In this document: one piece after another, positions 177-55,875 of the stretch
How the letters are laid out: the number at the start of each line of letters is the position of its first letter
How positions within the stretch are numbered: the stretch's first letter is position 1
From: a phage
DNA: 64,000 nt
Direction: 5' to 3' (one strand)
Assembly (NCBI GenBank): GCA_012813795.1
Contig: GCA_012813795.1_4087.1
Translations under genes and position numbers: made by a program
Notes under the pieces: model-generated
Databases searched by the model: none
What the model saw: the letters and a program-made list of their open reading frames with translations, nothing else
Told to the model about the DNA's origin: nothing

Positions 177-679
177 TTATCATCCACTTGTATGTCAAAG
201 GCTTTACAGAAATTATCTACTCTTTTACCAGGAACTGACATGTATATGTTATATGGCAATTCACATACCTTATTGGAAATTGCCAGTACTTTAGGAATAT
301 CAGGATCGTGTAGTTCAAAGTTGTATAGCAATGAACTTTGGAATACACCCTCTTCAGTACTGTAATCTACAATGAACAGTTCGTGTGATGATGGTATATC
401 ATATTCTACAATGTTTTTGTGATTCGGTCTATTATGAAAGTGAATTTCATATGTATCACGCACCGTTGGTTTAGATAGATAAACCGCAGATTCAAAAAGA
501 TCACCAATACCGAATGTAACATCACACAGCTTATCACCGTTTGTATCATACAAATAGAACATTGTACTATCAAATACTTTATCAGATACAATATTCATAG
601 TATTGTACGTACCATTGTAGCTCTCATTGAAGTTGATAAACTCTATGAACTTTACAAACTTATCAGTACTAAGATTCAC
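173..679 (-). CDS. EE-x-FFQ motif family protein (hypothetical)
   Basis: 168-aa ORF; C-terminal STEEGVFQSSLL matches the family motif. Confidence 0.5.
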   Translation of the reverse strand: MNLSTDKFVKFIEFINFNESYNGTYNTMNIVSDKVFDSTMFYLYDTNGDKLCDVTFGIGDLFESAVYLSKPTVRDTYEIHFHNRPNHKNIVEYDIPSSHELFIVDYSTEEGVFQSSLLYNFELHDPDIPKVLAISNKVCELPYNIYMSVPGKRVDNFCKAFDIQVDDK

Positions 680-3481: not shown

Positions 3482-4294
3482 TTAAATTACATAGGGTTTA
3501 TAGTAATGAATCTCATTTGCTATTGCAGTGAAAACTTTCTTATTAAATCTTTCACCATAATCACGAAGTGATTCACCTTCTACGCTTTCAATAAAGTAAT
3601 TATATACTGGTAGTCGTGCACTGTCAATACCTATAAACGATTTCATGTAAATTTGTACTAAACGATTCATACCTGAATTTAAACATTCAACATCAAAGTG
3701 CTTGATACCTTTGTCTAAGTGCTTGAATGCATTGATGATACCACGCTTGAAATCACGCTCCATAGTACTGAATAGATTCTCAGGAAACACTGTAATCGGA
3801 GACATGGATTTAAGAATGTATGTATCTTTTGCATTCTTGATGTACTCAATGAAGCAGTAGTTTACATTAGGCTCAATTGAACGGTCTGCATTATGATACC
3901 AGTACTTAAACTCGCTGTACTCTGCGAACTTATGCTGGCGTAAGGCATTACAATCCTCACACAGTGCAGTCATGTTCTCTTTATCATTACCACCCTGAAG
4001 ACAGTCAAGTACATTATGGTCTAACGTCATGCGTACAAGGCGTTTCCCTTTAAGTACATAAGGTCTGAATTTATAACGGTCTTTAGTACTGTGCTTATGT
4101 AAAGTGAATACTACATTGGATTCACCACAACAATCACATTTAAAGCCGTCACGAGACATTACATGAATGAGTTTGCGAGTATTAGGTCCAAACTCAGATT
4201 TAGTAATATTATCCACAATTTCTGATGGTTGGTAATATTTTGAATTCAGTCGAATCAATTCATCGATAGTACTCATTTTAGATTTCCTCTTCAC
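3482..4294 (-). CDS. HNH-family endonuclease (putative homing endonuclease)
   Basis: CxxC ... DHNVLDCLQGGNDKENMTALCEDCN resembles the HNH zinc-binding core. Confidence 0.6.
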   Translation of the reverse strand: MKRKSKMSTIDELIRLNSKYYQPSEIVDNITKSEFGPNTRKLIHVMSRDGFKCDCCGESNVVFTLHKHSTKDRYKFRPYVLKGKRLVRMTLDHNVLDCLQGGNDKENMTALCEDCNALRQHKFAEYSEFKYWYHNADRSIEPNVNYCFIEYIKNAKDTYILKSMSPITVFPENLFSTMERDFKRGIINAFKHLDKGIKHFDVECLNSGMNRLVQIYMKSFIGIDSARLPVYNYFIESVEGESLRDYGERFNKKVFTAIANEIHYYKPYVI

Positions 4295-4502
4295 TGCATT
4301 CGGTGATTACTTTTTTAACCTCTATAACTCTTACTAAATGATACCCGCACCTATGGTTGAAATTAAACATGTTTACTAATGCATCAGCTTCTGTTTTTGC
4401 CCTAAATTGGAGATTATATATGTGCATAGTTTCATCGAGTGAGGCTTCACCTTTGCTATTGAAAACAATTTTACAAACTTCAAACCTTACTCGATAAATC
4501 AT
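4278..4502 (-). CDS. hypothetical protein
   Basis: 74-aa ORF. Confidence 0.4.
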   Translation of the reverse strand: MIYRVRFEVCKIVFNSKGEASLDETMHIYNLQFRAKTEADALVNMFNFNHRCGYHLVRVIEVKKVITECSEEEI

Positions 4503-4708
4503 TGAGTTTGTCCTACAATAAATTTCGCTTTAATATCACTTTTGTAACACCACATTTGTTCTTCACTAACTGTCATCCAAGAATTTTTGTTTACTTGTTC
4601 GTATGTACTATCACGTACAGAAAAACATTGGTTTAATGAATTCATAGGGGTAATTTGTACACCGGATTGCATTGAAAGAGCAACAATTAAAAAGATTGTA
4701 GTATTCAT
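4499..4708 (-). CDS. hypothetical secreted or membrane protein
   Basis: 69-aa ORF with hydrophobic N-terminus. Confidence 0.4.
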   Translation of the reverse strand: MNTTIFLIVALSMQSGVQITPMNSLNQCFSVRDSTYEQVNKNSWMTVSEEQMWCYKSDIKAKFIVGQTQ

Positions 4709-5323
4709 TGAATGTTCCTTAATAGTTAGTCATCCATCTCTTCGAGATGTCTGTTCGCTTCTAATACTACGTATTCTACGCGAATGATTAATAACTGTCA
4801 AGGACTTTTAATATTGACGGGATTTGAGGAAGGGATTTTTCTTCCCCCCGCTGGGAGGGGAATTTGACGCTGATGGTATCAGAGCTATTGCATTGAAGAT
4901 TACTCTTAATGAGTACGAAAGCGGGTCATCCTGTTTCTCTCTACTTCAGTTTCATATGACGGTCTACACTTTTAAACATAGTGTATCTTCATTAAGTATC
5001 TATGCAATCAAATACTTAATGTGAGTACTCAAATTTTGGACGCAACTTTCCTGTACAAAATTTGATAACTCTCCCTTAGATAATTCGTAAGGTGTTATCC
5101 TTATATGTCTATCTAGGAACCACCAGCCATCCTAACGTGGTTCTTTATAGTGCCGCATTGCCGTGAGGGGTTCATAATATGCCCACATCTGACGGGTTTC
5201 TTCTGCACTTCGCACTGCTGGACTGCTCAACTGCCCTCTACATTTTCGAGTGGATCAGGTTCATGTCATCCATGCCAACAGAATTGTACAATATCATTGT
5301 ATCATGAACATCCATTTTGTCCC

Positions 5324-5352
5324 ATAAAAAAAGGGCTGACCTAAGTCAACCC
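5324..5352 (-). terminator. rho-independent terminator after sigma gene
   Basis: GGGUUGAC/GUCAGCCC hairpin (one G-U pair) followed by U7 on minus-strand RNA; A/T runs on both sides. Confidence 0.55.
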
Positions 5353-5359
5353 TTTTTCT

Positions 5360-6322
5360 TTAGAAATCTTCGTATTCGTACCCTTTTTCAAGTACTATTT
5401 TTTTAAGCTTTTGAATAGCTTCACTATATTTTCGGTGCACAGATGAACGGGACTTAACAATGTTTCCTTTATCATCAACATATCCATTATCAGAAATTTC
5501 ACGAAGGGTTTCTGCTTTGTAATCCCCAAGACCATGAACACGCATGATAATTTCTCGTTCTTTAGTACTCAATTCGTCAATGATTTCTGTGATTGCATAA
5601 CGTAATGGATTACAAATGCTATCAACATTAAGGTTATAATCACGAGCAGATGAACTCAGAATATCCCCAAGGGTTCCGTCTGAATCTGAACCCAGTTGTG
5701 CATCAAGAGTCGTATATGCATTCTGGTATAACAAACAGTTCTTAACGTGCTGAAGCTCGATACCAGTACTCTCAGAGATTAATTCTGGTGTTGGTCGCTT
5801 ACCGTGTTCACGTTGATATGATTCATTAAATCGACGTACTTGGATGTTATGAACGCTCATATAACGTGGTAAGTACACCATGTAATTTGCATCTGAACTT
5901 TCATTATACATAGTCATATAAACGGACGTTGTTGCATATGTAATGAATTTGACATTCTTACTAAGATCAAAGGTTTTAAGTGCTCGCATAAAACCTTCTA
6001 CGCCATATGCAATTTTATCTTCAAACGGAATATAACATGTACACTTTGAAGCAACGTCAACAATCATACCATAGTTGTAACGAAGTAATAGGTCAGTATT
6101 CTTTTTTACATTAATCCCAGCACGAATCTCTTCTATGATAGATTCATTAGTTACACCTGCTGGACGTTTAATACTGATATTACTTTTACTACGAACTTTA
6201 TGTGGAATATCATCTTCAATAACTTCTGATGGTTCAATTGCTTCCAATGGATTGACTTCTTCATTCGCAAAACATTCATCCAGTACTTCTTCGGAAATTG
6301 CGTTTAAGTCTAGTTTCTTCAC
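5360..6322 (-). CDS. sigma-70 family RNA polymerase sigma factor
   Basis: 320 aa; region-2-like segment and C-terminal region-4 HTH (LSTKEREIIMRVHGLGDYKAETLREISD...RSSVHRKYSEAIQKL). Confidence 0.7.
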   Translation of the reverse strand: MKKLDLNAISEEVLDECFANEEVNPLEAIEPSEVIEDDIPHKVRSKSNISIKRPAGVTNESIIEEIRAGINVKKNTDLLLRYNYGMIVDVASKCTCYIPFEDKIAYGVEGFMRALKTFDLSKNVKFITYATTSVYMTMYNESSDANYMVYLPRYMSVHNIQVRRFNESYQREHGKRPTPELISESTGIELQHVKNCLLYQNAYTTLDAQLGSDSDGTLGDILSSSARDYNLNVDSICNPLRYAITEIIDELSTKEREIIMRVHGLGDYKAETLREISDNGYVDDKGNIVKSRSSVHRKYSEAIQKLKKIVLEKGYEYEDF

Positions 6323-8298: not shown

Positions 8299-8352
8299 AT
8301 GTGTCCCTCCTTTGTTTTGATAAAATAATTATATCCCTTAACACATTTTATG

Positions 8353-8778
8353 TCAAGATGTTTTTGTTCCTTCCCTTGCCTCTCGTTCAAGAAACTCTTG
8401 GATTATTGAATTTTGTCGTGAACGAACAACTATTGTCATTAACAAAAGTATTGATGATGCAACACCAGGAATGATCTCACCCATTTGAATGAAATAAACT
8501 GTCAGTAATGCAAATGGTACAATAGTTACTGAACTGATCGTTTTCCACCCAAAGTCATTCGCAAAGTTGTTTTTATCTTTCTCGTCATTATCCATTGCAA
8601 TTGTTAGTAACGTAATAAGAGCAGCCAAACCCGCACACAGGCAGTATCCAACAATAGCAATAGTAAACCACGCTGGATTAAGTACTGTACCAATCGAATA
8701 CTTTGTGCATAATACGTCAATTAGACATAAAATACCAAATGAAAAGGGAGCGAGTAATAGTTTATAGTATGTTCTCAT
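8353..8778 (-). CDS. hypothetical membrane protein
   Basis: 141 aa with several hydrophobic segments. Confidence 0.5.
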   Translation of the reverse strand: MRTYYKLLLAPFSFGILCLIDVLCTKYSIGTVLNPAWFTIAIVGYCLCAGLAALITLLTIAMDNDEKDKNNFANDFGWKTISSVTIVPFALLTVYFIQMGEIIPGVASSILLLMTIVVRSRQNSIIQEFLEREAREGTKTS

Positions 8779-10205: not shown

Positions 10206-10528
10206 TCATCAAACCCTCGTATGTAATTAAAAACTTCTACGCATTCTAATGTTTTTTCATCATCATTCATGTCATAGCCTTGAAGGAAATCTTCACGATC
10301 AACTCTCTTTGCCATCAAGTCAGTTTCTGAAATCATGGAATTGTAAAATGAAAACATATCCTTATAGTACTGCTTATTGTGTTGTTCATCCTTTACCTTA
10401 GCATAACCAGCACAATATGATGGGGATTTAACATCCTTCCATCGCACTTTATCAGCATAAACTGGATTGATGAAGCACGTAGTTAAGAATAGTACTGCTA
10501 CTATAGCCATGAAGCTCTTTAGCATCAT
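10202..10528 (-). CDS. hypothetical secreted protein
   Basis: 108 aa with signal-peptide-like N-terminus. Confidence 0.5.
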   Translation of the reverse strand: MMLKSFMAIVAVLFLTTCFINPVYADKVRWKDVKSPSYCAGYAKVKDEQHNKQYYKDMFSFYNSMISETDLMAKRVDREDFLQGYDMNDDEKTLECVEVFNYIRGFDE

Positions 10529-10767
10529 TATACCTCTTCGACAATAATATAGATTTCAACATCTTCACTGGAACTAAGATTTACTCTGTACTCAATATCA
10601 AGGATCTCGTACTGGGTATCATATGTATTTGTGATTGTCAGTACTGAACCAATAGATGGAAGTACTGGGAAATTCAATACATGTTGTACTGAACTAAATG
10701 AAAACTCTTTCTCACCGTTATATTGATTAGTAGTGTATTCATTTACTTCAATGTTACATTTAATCAT
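10528..10767 (-). CDS. hypothetical protein
   Basis: 79-aa ORF. Confidence 0.45.
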   Translation of the reverse strand: MIKCNIEVNEYTTNQYNGEKEFSFSSVQHVLNFPVLPSIGSVLTITNTYDTQYEILDIEYRVNLSSSEDVEIYIIVEEV

Positions 10768-11429
10768 AGTGGTAGCTCCTGTAGTGGTTTAAGAATACTC
10801 ATAACTGGATGGTTCTCAATTAATGGACGACCTGGTACACCTGTTAATACTACTGGAATAGAACTAATGTCTTTTACGTAATTGAATCCCTCAAACGTAA
10901 ATTCTTGTTTTTTCTCATTATACAAGACCCACAGAATAACATCAGCTTTTTTCTGAATGTTTTTCAATTGTCTAGTACTGACACATGGACCAAAGTCTTT
11001 CCATGATTTATACTTAATACCTTTTACTTCTATACGCAACCCATTTACTTTAATGTCACATTCACCATCACGTCCATCACATTGGAATGCTGGATCAATG
11101 TTTAACTTAATACCAGTACTGGCTTCAATTTCAGAGAACAATACAAACGATGCGTGTTCACAAACCATTCCAACAAAATGACTATGAGCGTGATTAAACC
11201 CATAAGGTGATTTGTTTTCAGGTGCAAGAACTTGATATCGCTCAGACTTTTCGATTGCCTTCGCCATGAAAGAATCTGCTTCATCAGAGTATAGTTTCAC
11301 AGTCATCTTGCCATTTTTAACAATTAAACGATTTTCTAATACATTCATAAAATACTCCTTTTCACTATTAATGTACATTATACTCAAAAATACAGGTCTG
11401 TCAAGGCCGATTTTCACCCTCATTATCAT
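10764..11429 (-). CDS. hypothetical protein
   Basis: 221-aa ORF; true start may be an internal Met. Confidence 0.5.
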   Translation of the reverse strand: MIMRVKIGLDRPVFLSIMYINSEKEYFMNVLENRLIVKNGKMTVKLYSDEADSFMAKAIEKSERYQVLAPENKSPYGFNHAHSHFVGMVCEHASFVLFSEIEASTGIKLNIDPAFQCDGRDGECDIKVNGLRIEVKGIKYKSWKDFGPCVSTRQLKNIQKKADVILWVLYNEKKQEFTFEGFNYVKDISSIPVVLTGVPGRPLIENHPVMSILKPLQELPL

Positions 11430-11469
11430 AAATATTTTATAAGCATTTCAACAATGAGGGGTTTGTTTT

Positions 11470-12627
11470 ATGTCTAGAACCATAGCTGATACCGGTGAAT
11501 ACAAGTTCGGTGAATGTGGTTATATCGTGGATGGTGCTTTACTAATCGATGGAACCAAATTAAAAAATATAAGAATTTACAGGCAGCGTAGTTATAAACT
11601 ATTTGATATTATAGATCCTGTAACAAACAAAATATATAGACGCGTACAAATTACTTCTTATGATAAGGTAGGAAATTTACTTAACTATAAAAAATCCGAT
11701 GATGAATTATTGGATGTTATTGCAAAGAATACTTTCTTTGTTCGTGGATACACTAATCATTTGAAACCTACAGATCCAACAGGGTTTGTAACTAAATTCC
11801 AATTACACAAAACGATATTTGGAAACTCCGATGTTACTTTTGATATGTACACACCAACTTGTTCAATTATTGATCGTGATATAGATAATATTTTAGTTAA
11901 TCCAGTTCATGTTGGGGATACTGAAATATCGGGTAAACTGTTCAATGCTGGACAAACCATCAACACAACAGGAATGACAATTACTGTAAAATTTTCAGAT
12001 GGGTCCGAGTATTCAACGAGTACAATAGTCAATGATGAATTCATTATAACAGTACCGGAAATTATGTCAACCGGAACTGCAACTATAACTCTTACGTCTG
12101 ATTTTTATAATACAAAAAGCGTTGATTTTAATATATTAGATGTTGGTGAGGATGACGGCTTAACCACTACTGTATCAGTAACTACATTCAGTACTGGGCC
12201 TGGTGATGTGTATAGTGCAAGAATCCCTGCTGATGTACATGGGCGTGGTAATAACTTAGCTATTCAGGTATATGATAATCATAATAATTTGGTATCTGCT
12301 GGCATTAATGTTAGCTCTACTGGTGATATTACAGTAACAATATATGATAATACACCTATAAAACTAAGTATATTGGGTAGTACATTACAAACATCTCCAT
12401 ATGTACAAAATGTCTCTTCTTCTGAATGGACACGCAATGGTGAAATGTATGAAATTAATATATCCAGTACTGGACACTTAAAAGAATTTGTTTTTGTTCA
12501 AGTATATGATAATAACAATGATGCAGTTCAATGTGAAATTCAGCTTGATGATGATGAGAATGTTACAATTACTTCTGTCGAAGCATTTGATGCAAAGATT
12601 GTAGTGTTTGGTTATAACAAACAATAA
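11470..12627 (+). CDS. hypothetical beta-rich repeat protein (possible virion or surface protein)
   Basis: 385 aa, the only substantial plus-strand gene; GAGGGG RBS; Thr/Ser-rich repeated beta-like segments; hairpin terminator right after stop. Confidence 0.55.
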   Translation: MSRTIADTGEYKFGECGYIVDGALLIDGTKLKNIRIYRQRSYKLFDIIDPVTNKIYRRVQITSYDKVGNLLNYKKSDDELLDVIAKNTFFVRGYTNHLKPTDPTGFVTKFQLHKTIFGNSDVTFDMYTPTCSIIDRDIDNILVNPVHVGDTEISGKLFNAGQTINTTGMTITVKFSDGSEYSTSTIVNDEFIITVPEIMSTGTATITLTSDFYNTKSVDFNILDVGEDDGLTTTVSVTTFSTGPGDVYSARIPADVHGRGNNLAIQVYDNHNNLVSAGINVSSTGDITVTIYDNTPIKLSILGSTLQTSPYVQNVSSSEWTRNGEMYEINISSTGHLKEFVFVQVYDNNNDAVQCEIQLDDDENVTITSVEAFDAKIVVFGYNKQ

Positions 12628-12656
12628 AAAAAAGCCTCCATATGGAGGCTTTTTCG
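12627..12656. terminator. bidirectional rho-independent terminator
   Basis: A8-GCCTCC-ATAT-GGAGGC-T5 between convergent genes. Confidence 0.7.
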
Positions 12657-12662
12657 TTCTCA

Positions 12663-13505
12663 TTACATAAAGTAATTGCGAATCACATATTCTAATGTTT
12701 TATCTTGGTGCTGCACTGCAACGGAATAAATTAGATTTTTAAATCCATCAATAGCAGCTTTCGATTCTTCTTCACCAAAATTCTTACTGATACTTTCGAA
12801 CATATCTTGTGCACGTTCAGAACTAACAACACTGTCAACGAATGCTGAAATTTCAGCACGCAACTGACGATCAAGCATATCACCAATCAGAATATCATCT
12901 GACTGTGAATCATCGTCGGTTTGTGCTGTGGTATCAGAATATCCAAAGATATCTTCAGATAGACCAAATTTCTTTTTAGCACCAGTAAATGCGGATTTCA
13001 CTTTAGATTTTACATCTTCTTTTTTGGAAGGTTGTTCTTGGGATTCAGGTTCTTCAGTTTCATATTCTTTTGTGAACATATGAGACAGCACTTGGTCAAG
13101 ATTATTAATCATACCATTTAACTTAGATTCTGCTGCGGCCCCCACGACTTTAAATGCTTCTTCATAAAGCTTATCTTCAGCCTTAGATTTTGCAGTACTA
13201 ACAGTTTCAGTGATTTTATCAGTACAATTTTTAAGAAGTTCAACAATTTCAGAAGATTTGCCATTTAGGATCTTATTGACCAACATATCCAACCCATCAG
13301 TTGGTTTGGATTTGTTTACTGGTTCACCATTTAATACCATTGCTAGTTCTTTTAGTGCAGCGTTAGATTCAAGACTAGAATCGAATTCTACCGATAACGT
13401 TGCCCCATTTGTCAACTCAATGACGAGATTATTGATAGACACATAAGAATGAGAATAAAGATCTTTATTGAATGATACAGTTTTGAATACGATAATGTTT
13501 GACAT
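12663..13505 (-). CDS. hypothetical acidic protein
   Basis: Start set at ATG 13505 (MSNIIVF) with GGAG RBS, not the upstream track start. Confidence 0.5.
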   Translation of the reverse strand: MSNIIVFKTVSFNKDLYSHSYVSINNLVIELTNGATLSVEFDSSLESNAALKELAMVLNGEPVNKSKPTDGLDMLVNKILNGKSSEIVELLKNCTDKITETVSTAKSKAEDKLYEEAFKVVGAAAESKLNGMINNLDQVLSHMFTKEYETEEPESQEQPSKKEDVKSKVKSAFTGAKKKFGLSEDIFGYSDTTAQTDDDSQSDDILIGDMLDRQLRAEISAFVDSVVSSERAQDMFESISKNFGEEESKAAIDGFKNLIYSVAVQHQDKTLEYVIRNYFM

Positions 13506-13515
13506 TTGAACTCCA

Positions 13516-13905
13516 TTAATTCCCAGACGCGGGAAAGTTTTTAAACATATAGTGACATTGTACCAGATTTTCGAAAGTAAGTCCAAAATCTAGAGTAACC
13601 ATCAGAGTTTGATATAAGTAATGACCAATCTCATTAGTTTCCGCATCTTTAAGATAGATTCCGAATTCAGTACAGCAAAATTGAACAACTTCATTATAAT
13701 CGATAAATTGTGATATTACAAGTACTTGGTCATATGAATTTGCATCAAAGCGAACCATGAACATTTCATTTGTTACAGGGTGGATAATAATACCACCCCT
13801 TGATATGACCTTTTCGTAATTATCACTCAAAAAATTAATTGTTGAGCTTAAATCCATATTATGCCTCGTTATAGAGTTTTCGTCCCGTGAGATGCTCATC
13901 TGCAC
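13516..13905 (-). CDS. hypothetical protein
   Basis: 129-aa ORF; C-terminal region weakly resembles the EE-x-FFQ family tail. Confidence 0.45.
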   Translation of the reverse strand: MQMSISRDENSITRHNMDLSSTINFLSDNYEKVISRGGIIIHPVTNEMFMVRFDANSYDQVLVISQFIDYNEVVQFCCTEFGIYLKDAETNEIGHYLYQTLMVTLDFGLTFENLVQCHYMFKNFPASGN

Positions 13906-19468: not shown

Positions 19469-19601
<133 letters not shown>

Positions 19602-20437: not shown

Positions 20438-22078
<1,641 letters not shown>

Positions 22079-25753: not shown

Positions 25754-25782
25754 ATTATATCAGTACTGGATAGTACTGTCAA
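25754..25782 (-). promoter_or_regulatory. sigma70-type early promoter
   Basis: TTGACAGTACTATCCAGTACTGATATAAT on minus strand (17-bp spacer). Confidence 0.55.
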
Positions 25783-40220: not shown

Positions 40221-40249
40221 ATTATAGTTGGAATGACGAATATTGTCAA
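40221..40249 (-). promoter_or_regulatory. sigma70-type early promoter
   Basis: TTGACAATATTCGTCATTCCAACTATAAT on minus strand (17-bp spacer). Confidence 0.5.
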
Positions 40250-45374: not shown

Positions 45375-45439
45375 ATTATCCTTAGATAATTAATAAAATA
45401 TGTGCCCATTATACAATGGGCACATTTATATGTCAACTA

Positions 45440-46615: not shown

Positions 46616-46644
46616 ATTATACGAGCAACACACATTCATGTCAA
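46616..46644 (-). promoter_or_regulatory. sigma70-type early promoter
   Basis: TTGACATGAATGTGTGTTGCTCGTATAAT then GTTTATCA on minus strand. Confidence 0.55.
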
Positions 46645-53487: not shown

Positions 53488-55875
53488 TTATATTATGTCA
53501 TTCTGTAAAGCAATTCTAAATGTATCATGTACATAACGTTCATGGTCCTGTGCAAAGTATCCAAATTCAACAGCAGTTACTTCGAATTCAGTACTAACCA
53601 TAGAACTATGCTCATTGTTTTGTAACAACATTTGGAAAAATGCTTCACCCTTACCAGGCAAACAGTATGCTACTGGAATGATAGGCATGAATTTCTTCTC
53701 AATACCATCTTCGATATATGGATGGTTCATGAAGCGTGGAACTGTGTCAATCATCTCATCACTTATGCCTGGTATAGCATCCACATATAGACCACGATTG
53801 ACTAAATCAGTTGGGTCTTTAACCAAGTTTGTTGTATCTTCACCAACAGCCTTATAGATGTTTTGGCGTAAACCAAACAACTCAGCAAGTAAACCATTAT
53901 CTACATTAGTGTAAATTCGAGGGTTGGTGGATACTACAACTTGTGTTCCTTCTGGATGAAGTTCTCTAAACACCAAATCATACAGAAGATTCCCTTTGTT
54001 GTCAAGTGCTGACATGATTTTATAATTACCAATAACCATCTTGAATTTACCATTGGGAATAGTAGCCCCTGATGGATCTATAATATTCTCACGGAGAACT
54101 TTTTTCAAATCACTTAAGTTGGTGTAATTATAGTTCTGATTTACAAAGTTTTCTTTCAATAGAATTCTAGGAACTTTCTGTAACCCATATCTATCATCAG
54201 ATTGACGATGGAATCCAAAATTAGCAAATGTTTGAGTACTGATGCATTTAAACCAATCACGCTCAAACTGTACCGATGGTACAATATGTGAACTCAAATG
54301 ATTTTGTCCCAACCCACGAACGATTTTTAATTTGAAATCACCAATAACACTACTACCCTCGGTGTCATACACTTCAACCTTGAAATTCAATTTTATATCA
54401 TCATTGGCACTAAAATCAGTACTTAATGCATATGCAGTTCCTACAAGATAACCGTCAGGGGTAAGGTCCAATCCATATTTAGTTATATCATCACCACCTG
54501 CCAATACACAAGATACTTGATTCTTACTATTAGTGAGTATTCGTGGGTATACCGTATGTCCGAAATATTCACCAACATGGATGGTTCCCAAGTCTGGATC
54601 GGTGATTATCTGTATAGATGAACCTTCTGCGGCGTTTTCCAAAAATCGGAACATACGTTTCTCACCAATAATACCACTACCTAAAGATACGTCATAATAA
54701 CCTAAATCATTCCAATCTGAACTTTTGAATAATGGTTTTATCATACCTTCATCATATTCACCACTAATAACATATGGATAAACAACGTTATCCCTTAACT
54801 GGTATAAATGGTTAGGTTTGGGTTTTTCATCAGTTGCAGCAATAGTAGATACATCATTTGGACATACCCACATTTGATATGCTTTGAAACGTTGGTCGAT
54901 TGCAAAACGTTCAGCGAGTGTAATGTATGTTTTAAGAATATCTACAATTTCAATCTTAAAGTAAACATCCGTTGGTTCGGATTCATGTAAGAATGTTTGT
55001 AAGAATTGCCCATTAGGGTTAAAGGAAAGACCACTTTTTGTTATCTTCCCAGTGTCATCAACTATGTTAACTTTAACTTCTTTATTAATTCCATCAACTG
55101 GAAATGCTAAATCATCAGGGCGTAGGTAAGCTGCTTTACCTGTAACGTGTCTTGTTGGTAAATCCTGTTCAGTTATATCCAGTAGGCGATACGCTGGAAA
55201 GAACACACGAGGACTAGTATCGGTCGCACTATCTACATTTGGCTGGTATGGACGTTTACGACCGAAGCCTTGAATGAACAAAGTACTGTCAGAACCATAT
55301 TCAATATCACCAATGCAATATAATCGATCGTCATCTGTGATAGTTAATCCAGGGGTTACCCATATTTCTTTACTATCAAAAGTTACTGTTGCTTTGTTTG
55401 CACGCAACAAACCAGATGGTGAAATGTTCCCAAAATGCATAACATTAACTGCCTGTAAATTGAAAACAACACTCTCAACGTTGTTAAATGTACCATCACG
55501 CTTACAATGCAACTTTAGATAATAAACATCTTCACTGATTATAGTACTTGGAAGATAAAAATTATTCTTTTGTATTCTACACTTATGTCTTCCATTTAAA
55601 AACTGGTTTCCAGTGGTTCCGTCCGATAGTGGGACTAAATTTCGTGGGTCATTACCAACAAATAATGAATAATGGTTTTCAGCGTTAAAAACATTACCAA
55701 CATTATCTAAACATTGTATAGTGAAAATCATCTCTAAGTATTCGTTTTCACTTAGTGTATAGCTATCACCTGTAGTTCCTTCTTTATTGATACTTAATCT
55801 AATAAGAATGTCAGATCCTTCTTGAATATATTGAGTATCAGCCTTTAAATCCCAATACGGGGTAAAAGATGCCAT
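53488..55875 (-). CDS. large hypothetical protein
   Basis: 795 aa; no Walker or GHKL motif seen. Confidence 0.6.
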   Translation of the reverse strand: MASFTPYWDLKADTQYIQEGSDILIRLSINKEGTTGDSYTLSENEYLEMIFTIQCLDNVGNVFNAENHYSLFVGNDPRNLVPLSDGTTGNQFLNGRHKCRIQKNNFYLPSTIISEDVYYLKLHCKRDGTFNNVESVVFNLQAVNVMHFGNISPSGLLRANKATVTFDSKEIWVTPGLTITDDDRLYCIGDIEYGSDSTLFIQGFGRKRPYQPNVDSATDTSPRVFFPAYRLLDITEQDLPTRHVTGKAAYLRPDDLAFPVDGINKEVKVNIVDDTGKITKSGLSFNPNGQFLQTFLHESEPTDVYFKIEIVDILKTYITLAERFAIDQRFKAYQMWVCPNDVSTIAATDEKPKPNHLYQLRDNVVYPYVISGEYDEGMIKPLFKSSDWNDLGYYDVSLGSGIIGEKRMFRFLENAAEGSSIQIITDPDLGTIHVGEYFGHTVYPRILTNSKNQVSCVLAGGDDITKYGLDLTPDGYLVGTAYALSTDFSANDDIKLNFKVEVYDTEGSSVIGDFKLKIVRGLGQNHLSSHIVPSVQFERDWFKCISTQTFANFGFHRQSDDRYGLQKVPRILLKENFVNQNYNYTNLSDLKKVLRENIIDPSGATIPNGKFKMVIGNYKIMSALDNKGNLLYDLVFRELHPEGTQVVVSTNPRIYTNVDNGLLAELFGLRQNIYKAVGEDTTNLVKDPTDLVNRGLYVDAIPGISDEMIDTVPRFMNHPYIEDGIEKKFMPIIPVAYCLPGKGEAFFQMLLQNNEHSSMVSTEFEVTAVEFGYFAQDHERYVHDTFRIALQNDII

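Follow-up and report, generated by a model that had tools for sequence, protein, structure and literature searches.

A lone plus-strand gene of an Asteriusvirus jumbo phage, predicted to encode a late-expressed, modular virion protein with Ig-like domains

Introduction

Hoc of phage T4 is the product of a late gene and is built from a virion-binding domain together with three Ig-like domains, which form an outward rod. Within the Hoc chain the Ig domains come first and the capsid-binding domain last, and the position of the protein at the hexamer centre is proven. The reverse order is found in pb10 of phage T5, whose capsid-binding domain is N-terminal and precedes the Ig-like domain(s) (PMC5292684). 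The late promoter of T4, TATAAATA, is read by gp55-RNAP with no need of a -35 element, and T4-type late units can end at a terminator that is shared by convergent genes; a lone late gene on the opposite strand is an ordinary arrangement for T4-like phages. Amongst the giant phages, ATAAATA has been predicted to be the late promoter of the structural genes of CBB and GAP32, a gp55-like factor is encoded by CBB and this phage group, and homologues of gp33 and gp45 were not found in CBB (PMC5259590); the mechanism of activation may therefore differ from that of T4.

Here a single plus-strand gene is compared with these systems. It was found in a 64,000-nt stretch of DNA (the window) from an Asteriusvirus jumbo phage that has 98.6% nucleotide identity to Escherichia phage A4; the host of this giant phage is E. 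coli.

An isolated plus-strand gene and its family

The initial annotation had singled out one plus-strand gene amongst more than 100 genes on the minus strand, and this picture was upheld by several observations. In a crude greedy selection of open reading frames (ORFs) across the window, 114 ORFs fell on the minus strand and a single ORF of more than 103 aa, 11470-12627, on the plus strand. The five tRNAs of the window, which were its only matches to Rfam, all lie on the minus strand (the ORF-free stretch 4709-5359 gave no match in the Rfam search), and in the independent annotation of A4 the genes from A4_71 to A4_200 are co-oriented (~129 genes) with the sole exception of A4_168. The features of the locus are collected in Table 1.

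The ORF is no chance ORF, because it matches phrog_10468 (‘virion structural protein’) over its full length (residues 1-382 against profile positions 1-383 of 384, E 1.4e-124). Judged by its sequence, the gene is a member of a structural, Ig-domain family that was already annotated: the A4 orthologue A4_168 (97.7% identity) is labelled ‘structural protein’ and the public record of 121Q gp155 already reads ‘structural protein, Ig-domain’. Identity is ~53% to the orthologues of 121Q/phAPEC6 and 38% to that of CBB, and 121Q gp155, phAPEC6 gp077, CBB_496 and A4_168 all share with the 385-aa protein full-length homology, the same length, synteny, the opposite-strand orientation, an upstream ATAAATA and a downstream hairpin. 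The gene is present in 62 RaK2-like phage records. Using the 385-aa protein as query, tblastn returned 61 records covering at least 80% of its length and no paralogue in the window, and an HMM search recovered 12 representatives at E<1e-30. GC skew changes sign within the gene, and in a comparison with a 79%-identical relative every domain has a dN/dS of 0.08-0.3.

Table 1. Features of the locus, with positions in the window
Feature	Position	Strand	Evidence or remark
CDS, virion structural protein, 385 aa, ATG start	11470..12627	+	orthologue of A4_168, 121Q gp155, phAPEC6 gp077, CBB_496
Shine-Dalgarno GAGGGG, 8 nt 5' of ATG	11456..11461	+	direct sequence reading
N-terminal domain, aa 1-125, proposed virion-anchor module	11470..11844	+	M-x-K/R-P-I-A-G start conserved; small beta-barrel core
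Ig-like beta-sandwich domain 1, aa 137-226	11878..12147	+	pLDDT ~90
Beta-sandwich domain 2, aa 227-306, internal repeat copy 1	12148..12387	+	repeat and predicted fold
Beta-sandwich domain 3, aa 307-385, internal repeat copy 2	12388..12624	+	repeat and predicted fold
CATAAATA, putative T4-type late-promoter motif (family consensus ATAAATA), ends 35 nt before ATG	11427..11434	+	motif match
Predicted perfect sigma-70 promoter TTGACA-16-TATAAT, divergent early operon beginning with gene 10764..11348	11377..11404	-	12/12 kept in 77% relative
Divergent neighbour, 194 aa, first gene of downstream early operon	10764..11348	-	phrog_16175, E 8e-114
Predicted perfect sigma-70 promoter, TGn extended -10, antisense inside gene; -35 hexamer starts at gene +601	12043..12070	-	motif
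Predicted two-way intrinsic terminator: A8, GCCTCC, ATAT, GGAGGC, T5	12626..12654	both	folding and conserved position
Convergent neighbour, 280 aa, last gene of upstream minus-strand operon	12663..13505	-	phrog_14991, E 1e-50; start per A4

Domain architecture

The Thr/Ser-rich, repeated beta-like segments first noticed in the protein were borne out by its composition (Thr 11.7%, Ser 7.5%), by an internal repeat (residues 242-303 vs 321-381, 27% identity, pairwise E 4e-7) and by an all-beta AlphaFold2 model. The full-length model (pLDDT 82.5) contains three confident sandwich domains (pLDDT ~84-96), its low-confidence parts being the first 16 residues and residues 125-134. The top PDB matches returned by Foldseek were filamin Ig 3-5, fibronectin FN3 arrays, Bap, SiiE and the Ig-like domain of RgpB (probability 0.99-1.0). 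The Ig-like fold on which the initial annotation had staked its reading is thus predicted with high confidence, in three beta-sandwich domains that follow the N-terminal domain (N-domain). A Pfam search of the 385-aa protein returned nothing above threshold, Ig families included; the matches in other family members were to CarboxypepD_reg (5/17, which bears on domain 1), Invasin_D3 and Big_6.

The N-terminal third is a separate, non-Ig domain that recurs in a whole series of Ig-array proteins. It always occupies residues 1-~121 of these proteins, which are from 124 to 1859 aa long, and elsewhere its fusion partners are Big_2 (x5-7), Invasin_D3/Big_1 and HYDIN-type Ig domains. Because it is always N-terminal, ahead of variable Ig arrays, the N-domain is read as an anchor, and most likely it docks the protein on the virion. 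Profile searches of all PDB sequences with the full-length and N-domain alignments found no relatives, and a search for a solved structural relative of the N-domain found none. A word-indexed search with the N-domain profile recovered only five proteins, all of them encoded at one and the same second locus in RaK2-like phages, and therefore gave no head-versus-tail clue; a search for related loci with a 641-aa family member gave no match.

The modules that follow the N-domain also occur in other settings. The unit of domain 1 is repeated in 6-20 copies in giant surface proteins, one of which has an LPXTG anchor, and the C-terminal pair (domains 2 and 3) is also carried on a different N-terminus by proteins of ~290 aa. 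The ratio dN/dS climbs from 0.08 in the N-domain to 0.31 in the last domain, and the N-domain evolves 3-4 times more slowly than the distal domains; domain 2 is fast-evolving, with 64% aa identity in a phage pair in which the N-domain has 87%.

Transcription signals

The putative late-promoter motif upstream of the gene matches the T4 late promoter at 7/8 positions and lies at a fitting distance from the ATG. ATAAATA is depleted in the window overall (11 observed vs 37 expected) and occurs twice on the plus strand in the 64 kb, one of the two sites being that upstream of the gene. It is found 24-57 nt upstream of the orthologue in six lineages (A4, the 77% relative, phAPEC6/121Q, GAP32, Yen9-04 and XaC1) and also 34 nt upstream of a 795-aa structural gene at 53488..55875. 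In this phage group late genes are normally marked by such a switch of strand. The late timing and promoter use of the gene are motif-based predictions; since it has its own late-promoter motif and a putative two-way terminator, it is read as a structural gene that is expressed late and lies between two early operons.

The perfect hairpin with A-run and T-run flanks that had been noted ahead of the convergent gene was confirmed both by the sequence and by folding. By sequence it has 11 perfect pairs, and by folding a stem of 11-12 pairs with 5 or more GC pairs; it takes up most of the 35 nt that separate the stop codons of the convergent genes (12627 and 12663). The folding energy is -16.3 kcal/mol on the plus strand (z -6.8) and -18.2 kcal/mol on the minus strand (z -5.0), and 0/200 shuffles fold as well; the U tail comprises 8 U on the minus strand and only 5 U on the plus strand. 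The position of the hairpin is kept in seven other loci (dG -15 to -17 kcal/mol), and the compared loci use four stem sequences (GCCTCC, GCCACTAC, GGCACTC and GGAGCC), all directly after the stop codon. This comparison indicates that the hairpin is maintained by selection, its position being kept and the stem sequence free to change. The proposed bidirectional terminator therefore stands as a two-way intrinsic-terminator-like structure of conserved position, at which transcripts would be expected to end, and the layout, with A and T runs flanking the hairpin, is that of a T4-type late unit ending at a terminator shared by convergent genes.

On the other strand, 11 perfect sigma-70 promoter sites were found in the window where 0.14 would be expected, and all 11 lie on the minus strand. 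Their flanks have no common UP element or discriminator, and GTACTG occurs in some of the spacers only. The divergent promoter that precedes the downstream early operon is located at -65 in the A4 clade (the window, A4 and L009), whereas it overlaps the start codon in 121Q/phAPEC6. One further site, antisense to the 385-aa gene, is the only one of the 11 that lies within an opposite-strand gene, and no minus-strand ORF was found downstream of it. This internal promoter is perfect in the A4 clade, both hexamers being kept (12/12) in L009 despite three changes in the spacer, but its retention in the 79% relative is no more than mildly unusual, since 12 such positions are kept by 6.9% of frames. 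In contrast, 121Q, phAPEC6 and CBB are without the perfect promoter, and no site at 11/12 or better was found in 121Q, GAP32, Yen9-04, XaC1 or CBB. Any function of the internal promoter is conjectural at present.

As a separate observation, AGTACT is in 5-14-fold excess clade-wide; no report of CAGTACTG or AGTACT excess was found in the literature.

Presence and position on the particle

Mass spectrometry of purified virions has detected two orthologues of the protein: 10 unique peptides covered 37.8% of phAPEC6 gp077 (PMC7247149), and 4 peptides covered 17.5% of CBB_496 (PMC5259590). The phAPEC6 counterpart of the convergent neighbour, gp078c, is likewise present in virions (4 peptides, 21.4% coverage; PMC7247149). 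Virion presence is thus carried by orthologues at 53% (phAPEC6) and 38% (CBB) identity rather than by this phage itself. The family is not absent from virions, and the initial suggestion that the gene encodes a virion protein gains support from both detections. The protein is probably a structural component of the particle surface, and we infer that it is exposed there; an adhesin activity, as also suggested initially, is speculative.

The reading that is favoured, with a probability of about 0.8, is that of a surface-exposed, modular virion protein that is expressed late between two early operons. The N-domain of ~125 aa would dock the protein on the virion, and the three Ig-like beta-sandwich domains, the last two of which would represent a tandem duplication, would project outward; by analogy with Hoc of T4 and pb10 of T5, the distal Ig-like domains probably bind surface glycans weakly. 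Transcription of the gene would begin at a T4-type late promoter of its own, CATAAATA, and would run counter to the early flow, between two early minus-strand operons driven by host sigma-70. The hairpin would end the late gene and, from the other side, the upstream minus-strand operon, and the downstream early operon would restart at the perfect sigma-70 promoter that stands back to back with the late promoter.

With its predicted folds, the 385-aa protein is similar to Hoc in size, domain count and predicted late-gene status, but its polarity is reversed and a profile search of all PDB chains, with nothing at E<=1, gave no similarity to Hoc. Its polarity is that of pb10, but pb10 is a far shorter protein with a single Ig domain, and the two N-domains match neither in sequence nor in fold. 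A position resembling that of these two proteins can be proposed tentatively, at rather less than even odds: the protein would be the unassigned density or fibre base at the centre of every hexamer of the 121Q and phAPEC6 capsids, with the N-domain on the major capsid protein hexamer and the Ig rod pointing outward. The combination of one binding domain with Ig domains in 385 aa, which parallels Hoc, and the pb10-like polarity agree with this position, as do the fairly high coverage of phAPEC6 gp077 and the finding that in Asteriusvirus the 385-aa protein alone carries the N-domain. However, the N-domain is without sequence or fold similarity to any solved capsid-binding domain and has no link to the capsid gene cluster, and the phAPEC6 density looked dimeric or trimeric and fibrous, and longer than three Ig domains would be. 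The cryo-EM papers on 121Q and phAPEC6 assign no density to the orthologue, and no high-resolution structure of this phage group was found in the literature.

A place on the tail rather than the head, whether as a decoration (sheath ring, collar or base of the ‘hair’) or as a tail-fibre accessory, is likewise a tentative proposal that falls short of an even chance. The C-terminal tandem domains are common to 121Q gp572, a 298-aa virion protein encoded beside the long-tail-fibre gene, between a colanic-acid-degrading protein and the proximal subunit of the long tail fibre, and phAPEC6, 121Q and CBB bear unassigned hairs and ring-shaped sheath decorations. A common distal domain does not, however, imply a common attachment site, and the hairs of CBB, at ~119 nm, are far longer than the Ig rod of a 385-aa protein. 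The paralogue CBB_112 (N-domain and Big_2) is labelled ‘major tail protein’, but this label comes from Big_2 matches alone and is therefore a naming artefact; it was rejected for the paralogues as reflecting the Big_2 similarity to siphophage tube proteins with Ig domains.

A broader proposal, which is considered unlikely, joins two parts: that the N-domain is an undescribed, clade-specific ‘plug’ for interchangeable Ig-array appendages, and that in the A4 clade the internal promoter makes an early antisense RNA that silences the late gene. Were this so, the appendages of RaK2-like phages would span a range from 124-aa stubs to 1859-aa rods, and the N-domain family would supply the hexamer-centre proteins and/or the hair bases on 121Q, phAPEC6 and CBB. 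The antisense RNA would cover the 5' half of the gene and the late promoter until transcription by host sigma-70 is shut off, and the internal promoter would also drive the downstream early operon as its second promoter.

That the protein is no true virion component, and that what was detected is an abundant late or secreted protein that was carried over and acts elsewhere (for example at the host surface), is very improbable. The mass spectrometry lists of jumbo phages do include enzymes, among them a topoisomerase subunit and an ssDNA-binding protein, but the two detections of the family are independent and come from different genera, with ten unique peptides for phAPEC6 gp077; the conserved N-terminus, MSRTIADTGEY, is without an evident signal peptide, and the architecture matches that of known decoration proteins. 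Finally, the view that the gene owes its orientation to chance, through a recent inversion or the insertion of a ‘moron’, and that the orientation has no regulatory meaning, the hairpin being merely the end of the neighbouring operon, has in its favour that the unit is isolated and has promoter-like and terminator-like signals of its own, as morons do, but it is close to refuted by conservation: the lone opposite-strand layout is also seen in Asteriusvirus, Mimasvirus, Eneladusvirus and XaC1, the 194-aa neighbour (which has no Pfam match) adjoins the gene in all lineages examined, orientation, neighbour, ATAAATA and hairpin are retained between genera even where aa identity falls to 33%, the second, paralogous N-domain locus of other genera also forms an isolated island on the opposite strand, and the GC content of the gene (0.28-0.36 vs ~0.34 for the window) is not atypical.

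Implications

For the family as such little changes, its orthologues having been annotated and detected in virions already. What is added to the reading of a late-expressed, surface-exposed virion protein is a domain map, in which the N-terminal domain is followed by a single Ig-like domain and then by the duplicated pair of sandwiches. The compact arrangement of late promoter, late gene, two-way terminator and back-to-back early promoter is conserved, and the locus is therefore a convenient test case for the mapping of early and late transcription. With the N-domain module, cryo-EM work has a concrete candidate for the decoration densities that are unassigned in 121Q-like phages, and the module suggests a possible display scaffold.

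Probable late transcription of a lone plus-strand gene

The window is part of a jumbo myophage closely similar to A4, in the 121Q / PBECO4 / RaK2-like group, because positions 10500-13800 matched a single record by megablast, Escherichia phage A4 (ON286972; 355.5 kb, genus Asteriusvirus), with 98.6% identity and 100% query coverage. The initial annotation had singled out one plus-strand gene of 385 aa among more than 100 minus-strand genes, and this was confirmed: the ORF is exact, a crude greedy ORF pick across the window gave 114 minus-strand ORFs and no further plus-strand ORF of >103 aa, and all five tRNAs in the window lie on the minus strand. Likewise, in the independent annotation of A4, the single exception to the shared orientation from A4_71 to A4_200 is A4_168, the counterpart of the gene studied. 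The ORF codes for protein. Its product aligns with PHROG 10468 ('virion structural protein') along its entire length (E 1.4e-124), a homologue is carried by 62 phage records (tblastn), dN/dS is 0.08-0.31 across all four domains against a 79%-identical relative, and the sign of the GC skew switches inside the gene.

The motif ATAAATA has been predicted to be the late promoter before structural genes in this phage group, resembling the T4 sequence TATAAATA, and a gp55-like factor has been reported alongside it (PMC5259590). A copy lies shortly before the gene studied, and the motif precedes the orthologue by 24-57 nt in A4, a 77% relative, phAPEC6/121Q, GAP32, Yen9-04 and XaC1. Counting both strands of the window, ATAAATA is depleted ~3.4-fold (11 sites vs 37 ± 6.8 expected, with at least 11 sites in 100 of 100 shuffles), a pattern consistent with the motif having been purged where it is not a promoter. 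Only two sites are on the plus strand. A further copy precedes a 795-aa structural gene, 53488..55875 (-), by 34 nt.

The perfect hairpin with A-run and T-run flanks, also described in the initial annotation, takes up most of the 35 nt that separate the stop codons of the two convergent genes and was found to fold on both strands (-16.3 kcal/mol, z -6.8, on the plus strand; -18.2 kcal/mol, z -5.0, on the minus strand), with U-tracts of five U in the plus and eight U in the minus direction; none of 200 shuffles folded equally well. Its position is kept, in that a strong hairpin lies right after the stop codon in all ATAAATA-bearing orthologue loci compared and in CBB, with stems of four different sequences and a dG of -15 to -17 kcal/mol. 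The gene is most probably a late transcription unit with an early operon on either side, its 3' end closed by a predicted terminator for both directions. This layout of a lone opposite-strand gene is old, being retained down to 33% protein identity. Late genes on the opposite strand are an ordinary arrangement in T4-type phages.

The convergent neighbour (12663-13505, minus strand) encodes an acidic 280-aa protein that matches phrog_14991 'virion structural protein' and has no Pfam match. The gene shares its strand with the early genes and stands at the end of a minus-strand operon, no ATAAATA lies upstream of it, and CBB and GAP32 carry a different gene at its position. Its phAPEC6 orthologue, gp078c, was detected in virions (4 peptides, 21.4% coverage; PMC7247149).

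Coordinates of the features discussed (window positions unless residues or a related locus used for comparison, L010-L014, are named)
Feature	Position	Strand	Details
CDS	11470..12627	+	ATG start, 385 aa (ORF listing)
Ribosome-binding site	8 nt upstream of ATG	+	GAGGGG
Late-promoter motif	11427-11434	+	CATAAATA, 35 nt upstream of ATG
Hairpin	12626-12654	both	A8-GCCTCC-ATAT-GGAGGC-T5
Perfect sigma-70 promoters	2536-2564, 2885-2912, 3599-3627, 8328-8356, 11377-11404, 12043-12070, 19497-19524, 25754-25782, 40221-40249, 45408-45436, 46616-46644	-	12043-12070: antisense, inside CDS, TGn extended -10 element
Larger sigma-70-family factor gene	5360-6322	-	regions 2, 3, 4 by Pfam
tRNA-Ser	20972-21063	-	anticodon ACT (ARAGORN); would read AGT codons
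AGTACT-type example sites	355-362, 2553-2560, 12189-12196, 12465-12472, 25761-25768		
N-terminal domain	~residues 17-120		moderately confident (AlphaFold2)
Three beta-sandwich domains	~residues 137-226, 227-306, 307-385		confident (AlphaFold2)
Second N-domain locus	L010 7001-8985; L011, L012, L013 around 8001		L010: Yen9-04 g095c/g094c
121Q gp572 locus	L014 7001-7897		

Predicted early promoters and a candidate antisense RNA

Perfect TTGACA-N16-18-TATAAT promoters number 11 in the window (0.14 expected), all of them on the minus strand, which agrees with the published view of the region as an early block read by host RNAP (PMC5259590). Most are directly upstream of minus-strand genes in the ORF list, and the one at 11377-11404, 23 nt from the late motif, would restart minus-strand transcription from gene 10764..11348 onward. 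The clear exception is the promoter within the plus-strand gene; that at 3599-3627 is also inside an ORF, the long GTG-started 3482..4294. A4 and the 77% relative also have the antisense promoter; in the latter both hexamers are intact, and three spacer bases, hence three amino acids, differ. This conservation is suggestive but not decisive: only 6.9% of 28-nt frames of the gene keep 12 such positions. At a match of at least 11/12 the promoter is absent from 121Q, GAP32, Yen9-04, XaC1 and CBB, and no minus-strand ORF lies downstream of it. It may be hypothesized that, if active, it would yield an early transcript complementary to the first ~570 nt of the late gene; this transcript would cross the late promoter, continue into the early operon beyond it and resemble the 'anti-late' RNA of T4.

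The early block also encodes two sigma-70-family factors, the smaller being the window counterpart of A4_187 (279 nt; A4 annotation only). Between the larger (5360..6322) and gene 4499..4708 (-) lie ~650 nt without a minus-strand ORF of >32 aa (4709-5359), unannotated in A4, with a GC of 0.38-0.42 vs about 0.33 and one 11/12 sigma-70-like site (4773-4801, minus strand); an Rfam search of this stretch returned nothing significant.

Domain architecture and evolution

The protein is Thr/Ser-rich (Thr 11.7%, Ser 7.5%) and repetitive, as had been proposed, with residues 242-303 aligning to 321-381 (27% identity, E 4e-7). The AlphaFold2 model, built from a 17-sequence alignment, is all-beta (mean pLDDT 82.5), and Foldseek against the PDB matched tandem Ig/FN3 arrays at probability 0.99-1.0, including filamin Ig 3-5, fibronectin FN3, Bap, SiiE and the RgpB Ig-like domain, so that Ig-like folds are predicted with high confidence. 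When 1.84 billion representatives were searched exhaustively by HMM, three modules separated: profile positions 1-~122 are always found on residues 1-~121, in proteins of 124 to 1859 aa; positions ~135-215 occur as 6-20 copies inside giant proteins of 1300-3900 aa; and positions ~221-379 are found in ~290-aa proteins behind a different N-terminus. The first of these, the N-domain, is followed in its family by Big_2 (x5-7), Invasin_D3/Big_1 or HYDIN-type Ig domains. Modelled alone from 53 sequences it gave a pLDDT of 81, and neither its profile nor that of the full-length protein matched PDB sequences. From the N-domain to the C-terminus, amino-acid identity with the 79% relative falls from 87% through 86% and 64% to 62%, whilst dN/dS rises from 0.08 through 0.15 and 0.22 to 0.31. 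Given this gradient and the N-terminal modularity, we infer that the N-domain is a conserved anchor bearing faster-evolving, outward-facing Ig modules.

A second N-domain locus has the same isolated opposite-strand placement among nucleotide-metabolism genes in Eneladusvirus and metagenomic relatives, where cytidylyltransferase and dCMP deaminase genes flank it, and probably in Mimasvirus, of which CBB and GAP32 carry a second N-domain gene at a similar genome coordinate. Its content varies: 211-216-aa proteins of N-domain plus Big_2, a 125-aa gene for the N-domain only with a 642-aa gene behind it, or two genes of 345 and 301 aa in tandem.

Virion presence and candidate sites of attachment

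The gene is assigned by sequence to the 121Q gp155 / phAPEC6 gp077 / CBB_496 family, and the 121Q gp155 record already noted 'structural protein, Ig-domain'. Presence in virions was borne out through orthologues: phAPEC6 gp077 (53% identical) was recovered from purified virions with 10 unique peptides and 37.8% coverage (PMC7247149), and CBB_496 (38% identical) with 4 peptides and 17.5% coverage (PMC5259590). The initial observation is confirmed, and its interpretation as a decoration protein is supported by virion presence and the predicted folds; a capsid location and any adhesin-like binding are candidate properties. The protein is likened to two decoration proteins with Ig domains, Hoc and pb10, although sequence profile and fold searches find it homologous to neither; it shares its polarity with pb10, whereas that of Hoc is reversed.

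Capsid and tail locations carry equal weight. Two cryo-EM studies of 121Q/phAPEC6 describe both a central density in every hexamer, a protein or fibre with no assigned gene, and hairs on the sheath; the former favours the capsid, as does the N-domain being carried in Asteriusvirus by the gene studied only. The tail is favoured by the C-terminal sandwich pair (aa ~221-379), which is shared with 121Q gp572, a ~290-aa virion protein with a different N-terminus whose gene has that for a colanic-acid-degrading protein on one side and that for the long-tail-fibre proximal subunit on the other. The shared pair represents domain shuffling between two structural proteins. The name 'major tail protein' of the paralogue CBB_112 was rejected as a location clue, as it derives from Big_2 matches only.

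A clade-wide excess of AGTACT

AGTACT occurs 146 times in the window vs 21.9 expected from base composition, AGTACTG 143 times vs 7.4 ± 2.9 in dinucleotide shuffles, and the common palindromic extension CAGTACTG 34 times vs about 0.7 expected. It is by far the most enriched 6-bp palindrome (6.7-fold; runner-up 2.8-fold), and is found in all three coding phases, in intergenic DNA and, in several cases, inside the spacer of a perfect sigma-70 promoter. Against a 79-87% identical relative, 14 of 17 sites are conserved vs 51% of all hexamers, and an excess of 5-14-fold was present in every RaK2-like locus compared, at a GC of 0.31 to 0.45 (A4, 121Q, phAPEC6, GAP32, CBB, Yen9-04, XaC1 and metagenomic relatives). 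The pattern suggests that AGTACT is a DNA signal kept by selection throughout the clade, and its candidate roles include a site for binding, for modification, for nicking or for priming; a literature search found no published account of the excess. Other 6-bp palindromes are missing from the window, namely CAGCTG, CCATGG, CCTAGG, AGGCCT and AGCGCT (6.1 expected each) and CCCGGG, CCGCGG and CGCGCG (1.7 expected), which looks like restriction-site avoidance. The tRNA-Ser(ACT), unusual in having A at the wobble position, is clustered with tRNA-Thr(TGT), Asn, Met and Ser(TGA); a tie to the excess is conceivable, AGT being the first half of AGTACT.

As a further member of an already known protein family, the gene itself adds little that is new. 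The AGTACT excess appears more unusual than the lone opposite-strand gene, and merits a study of its own.
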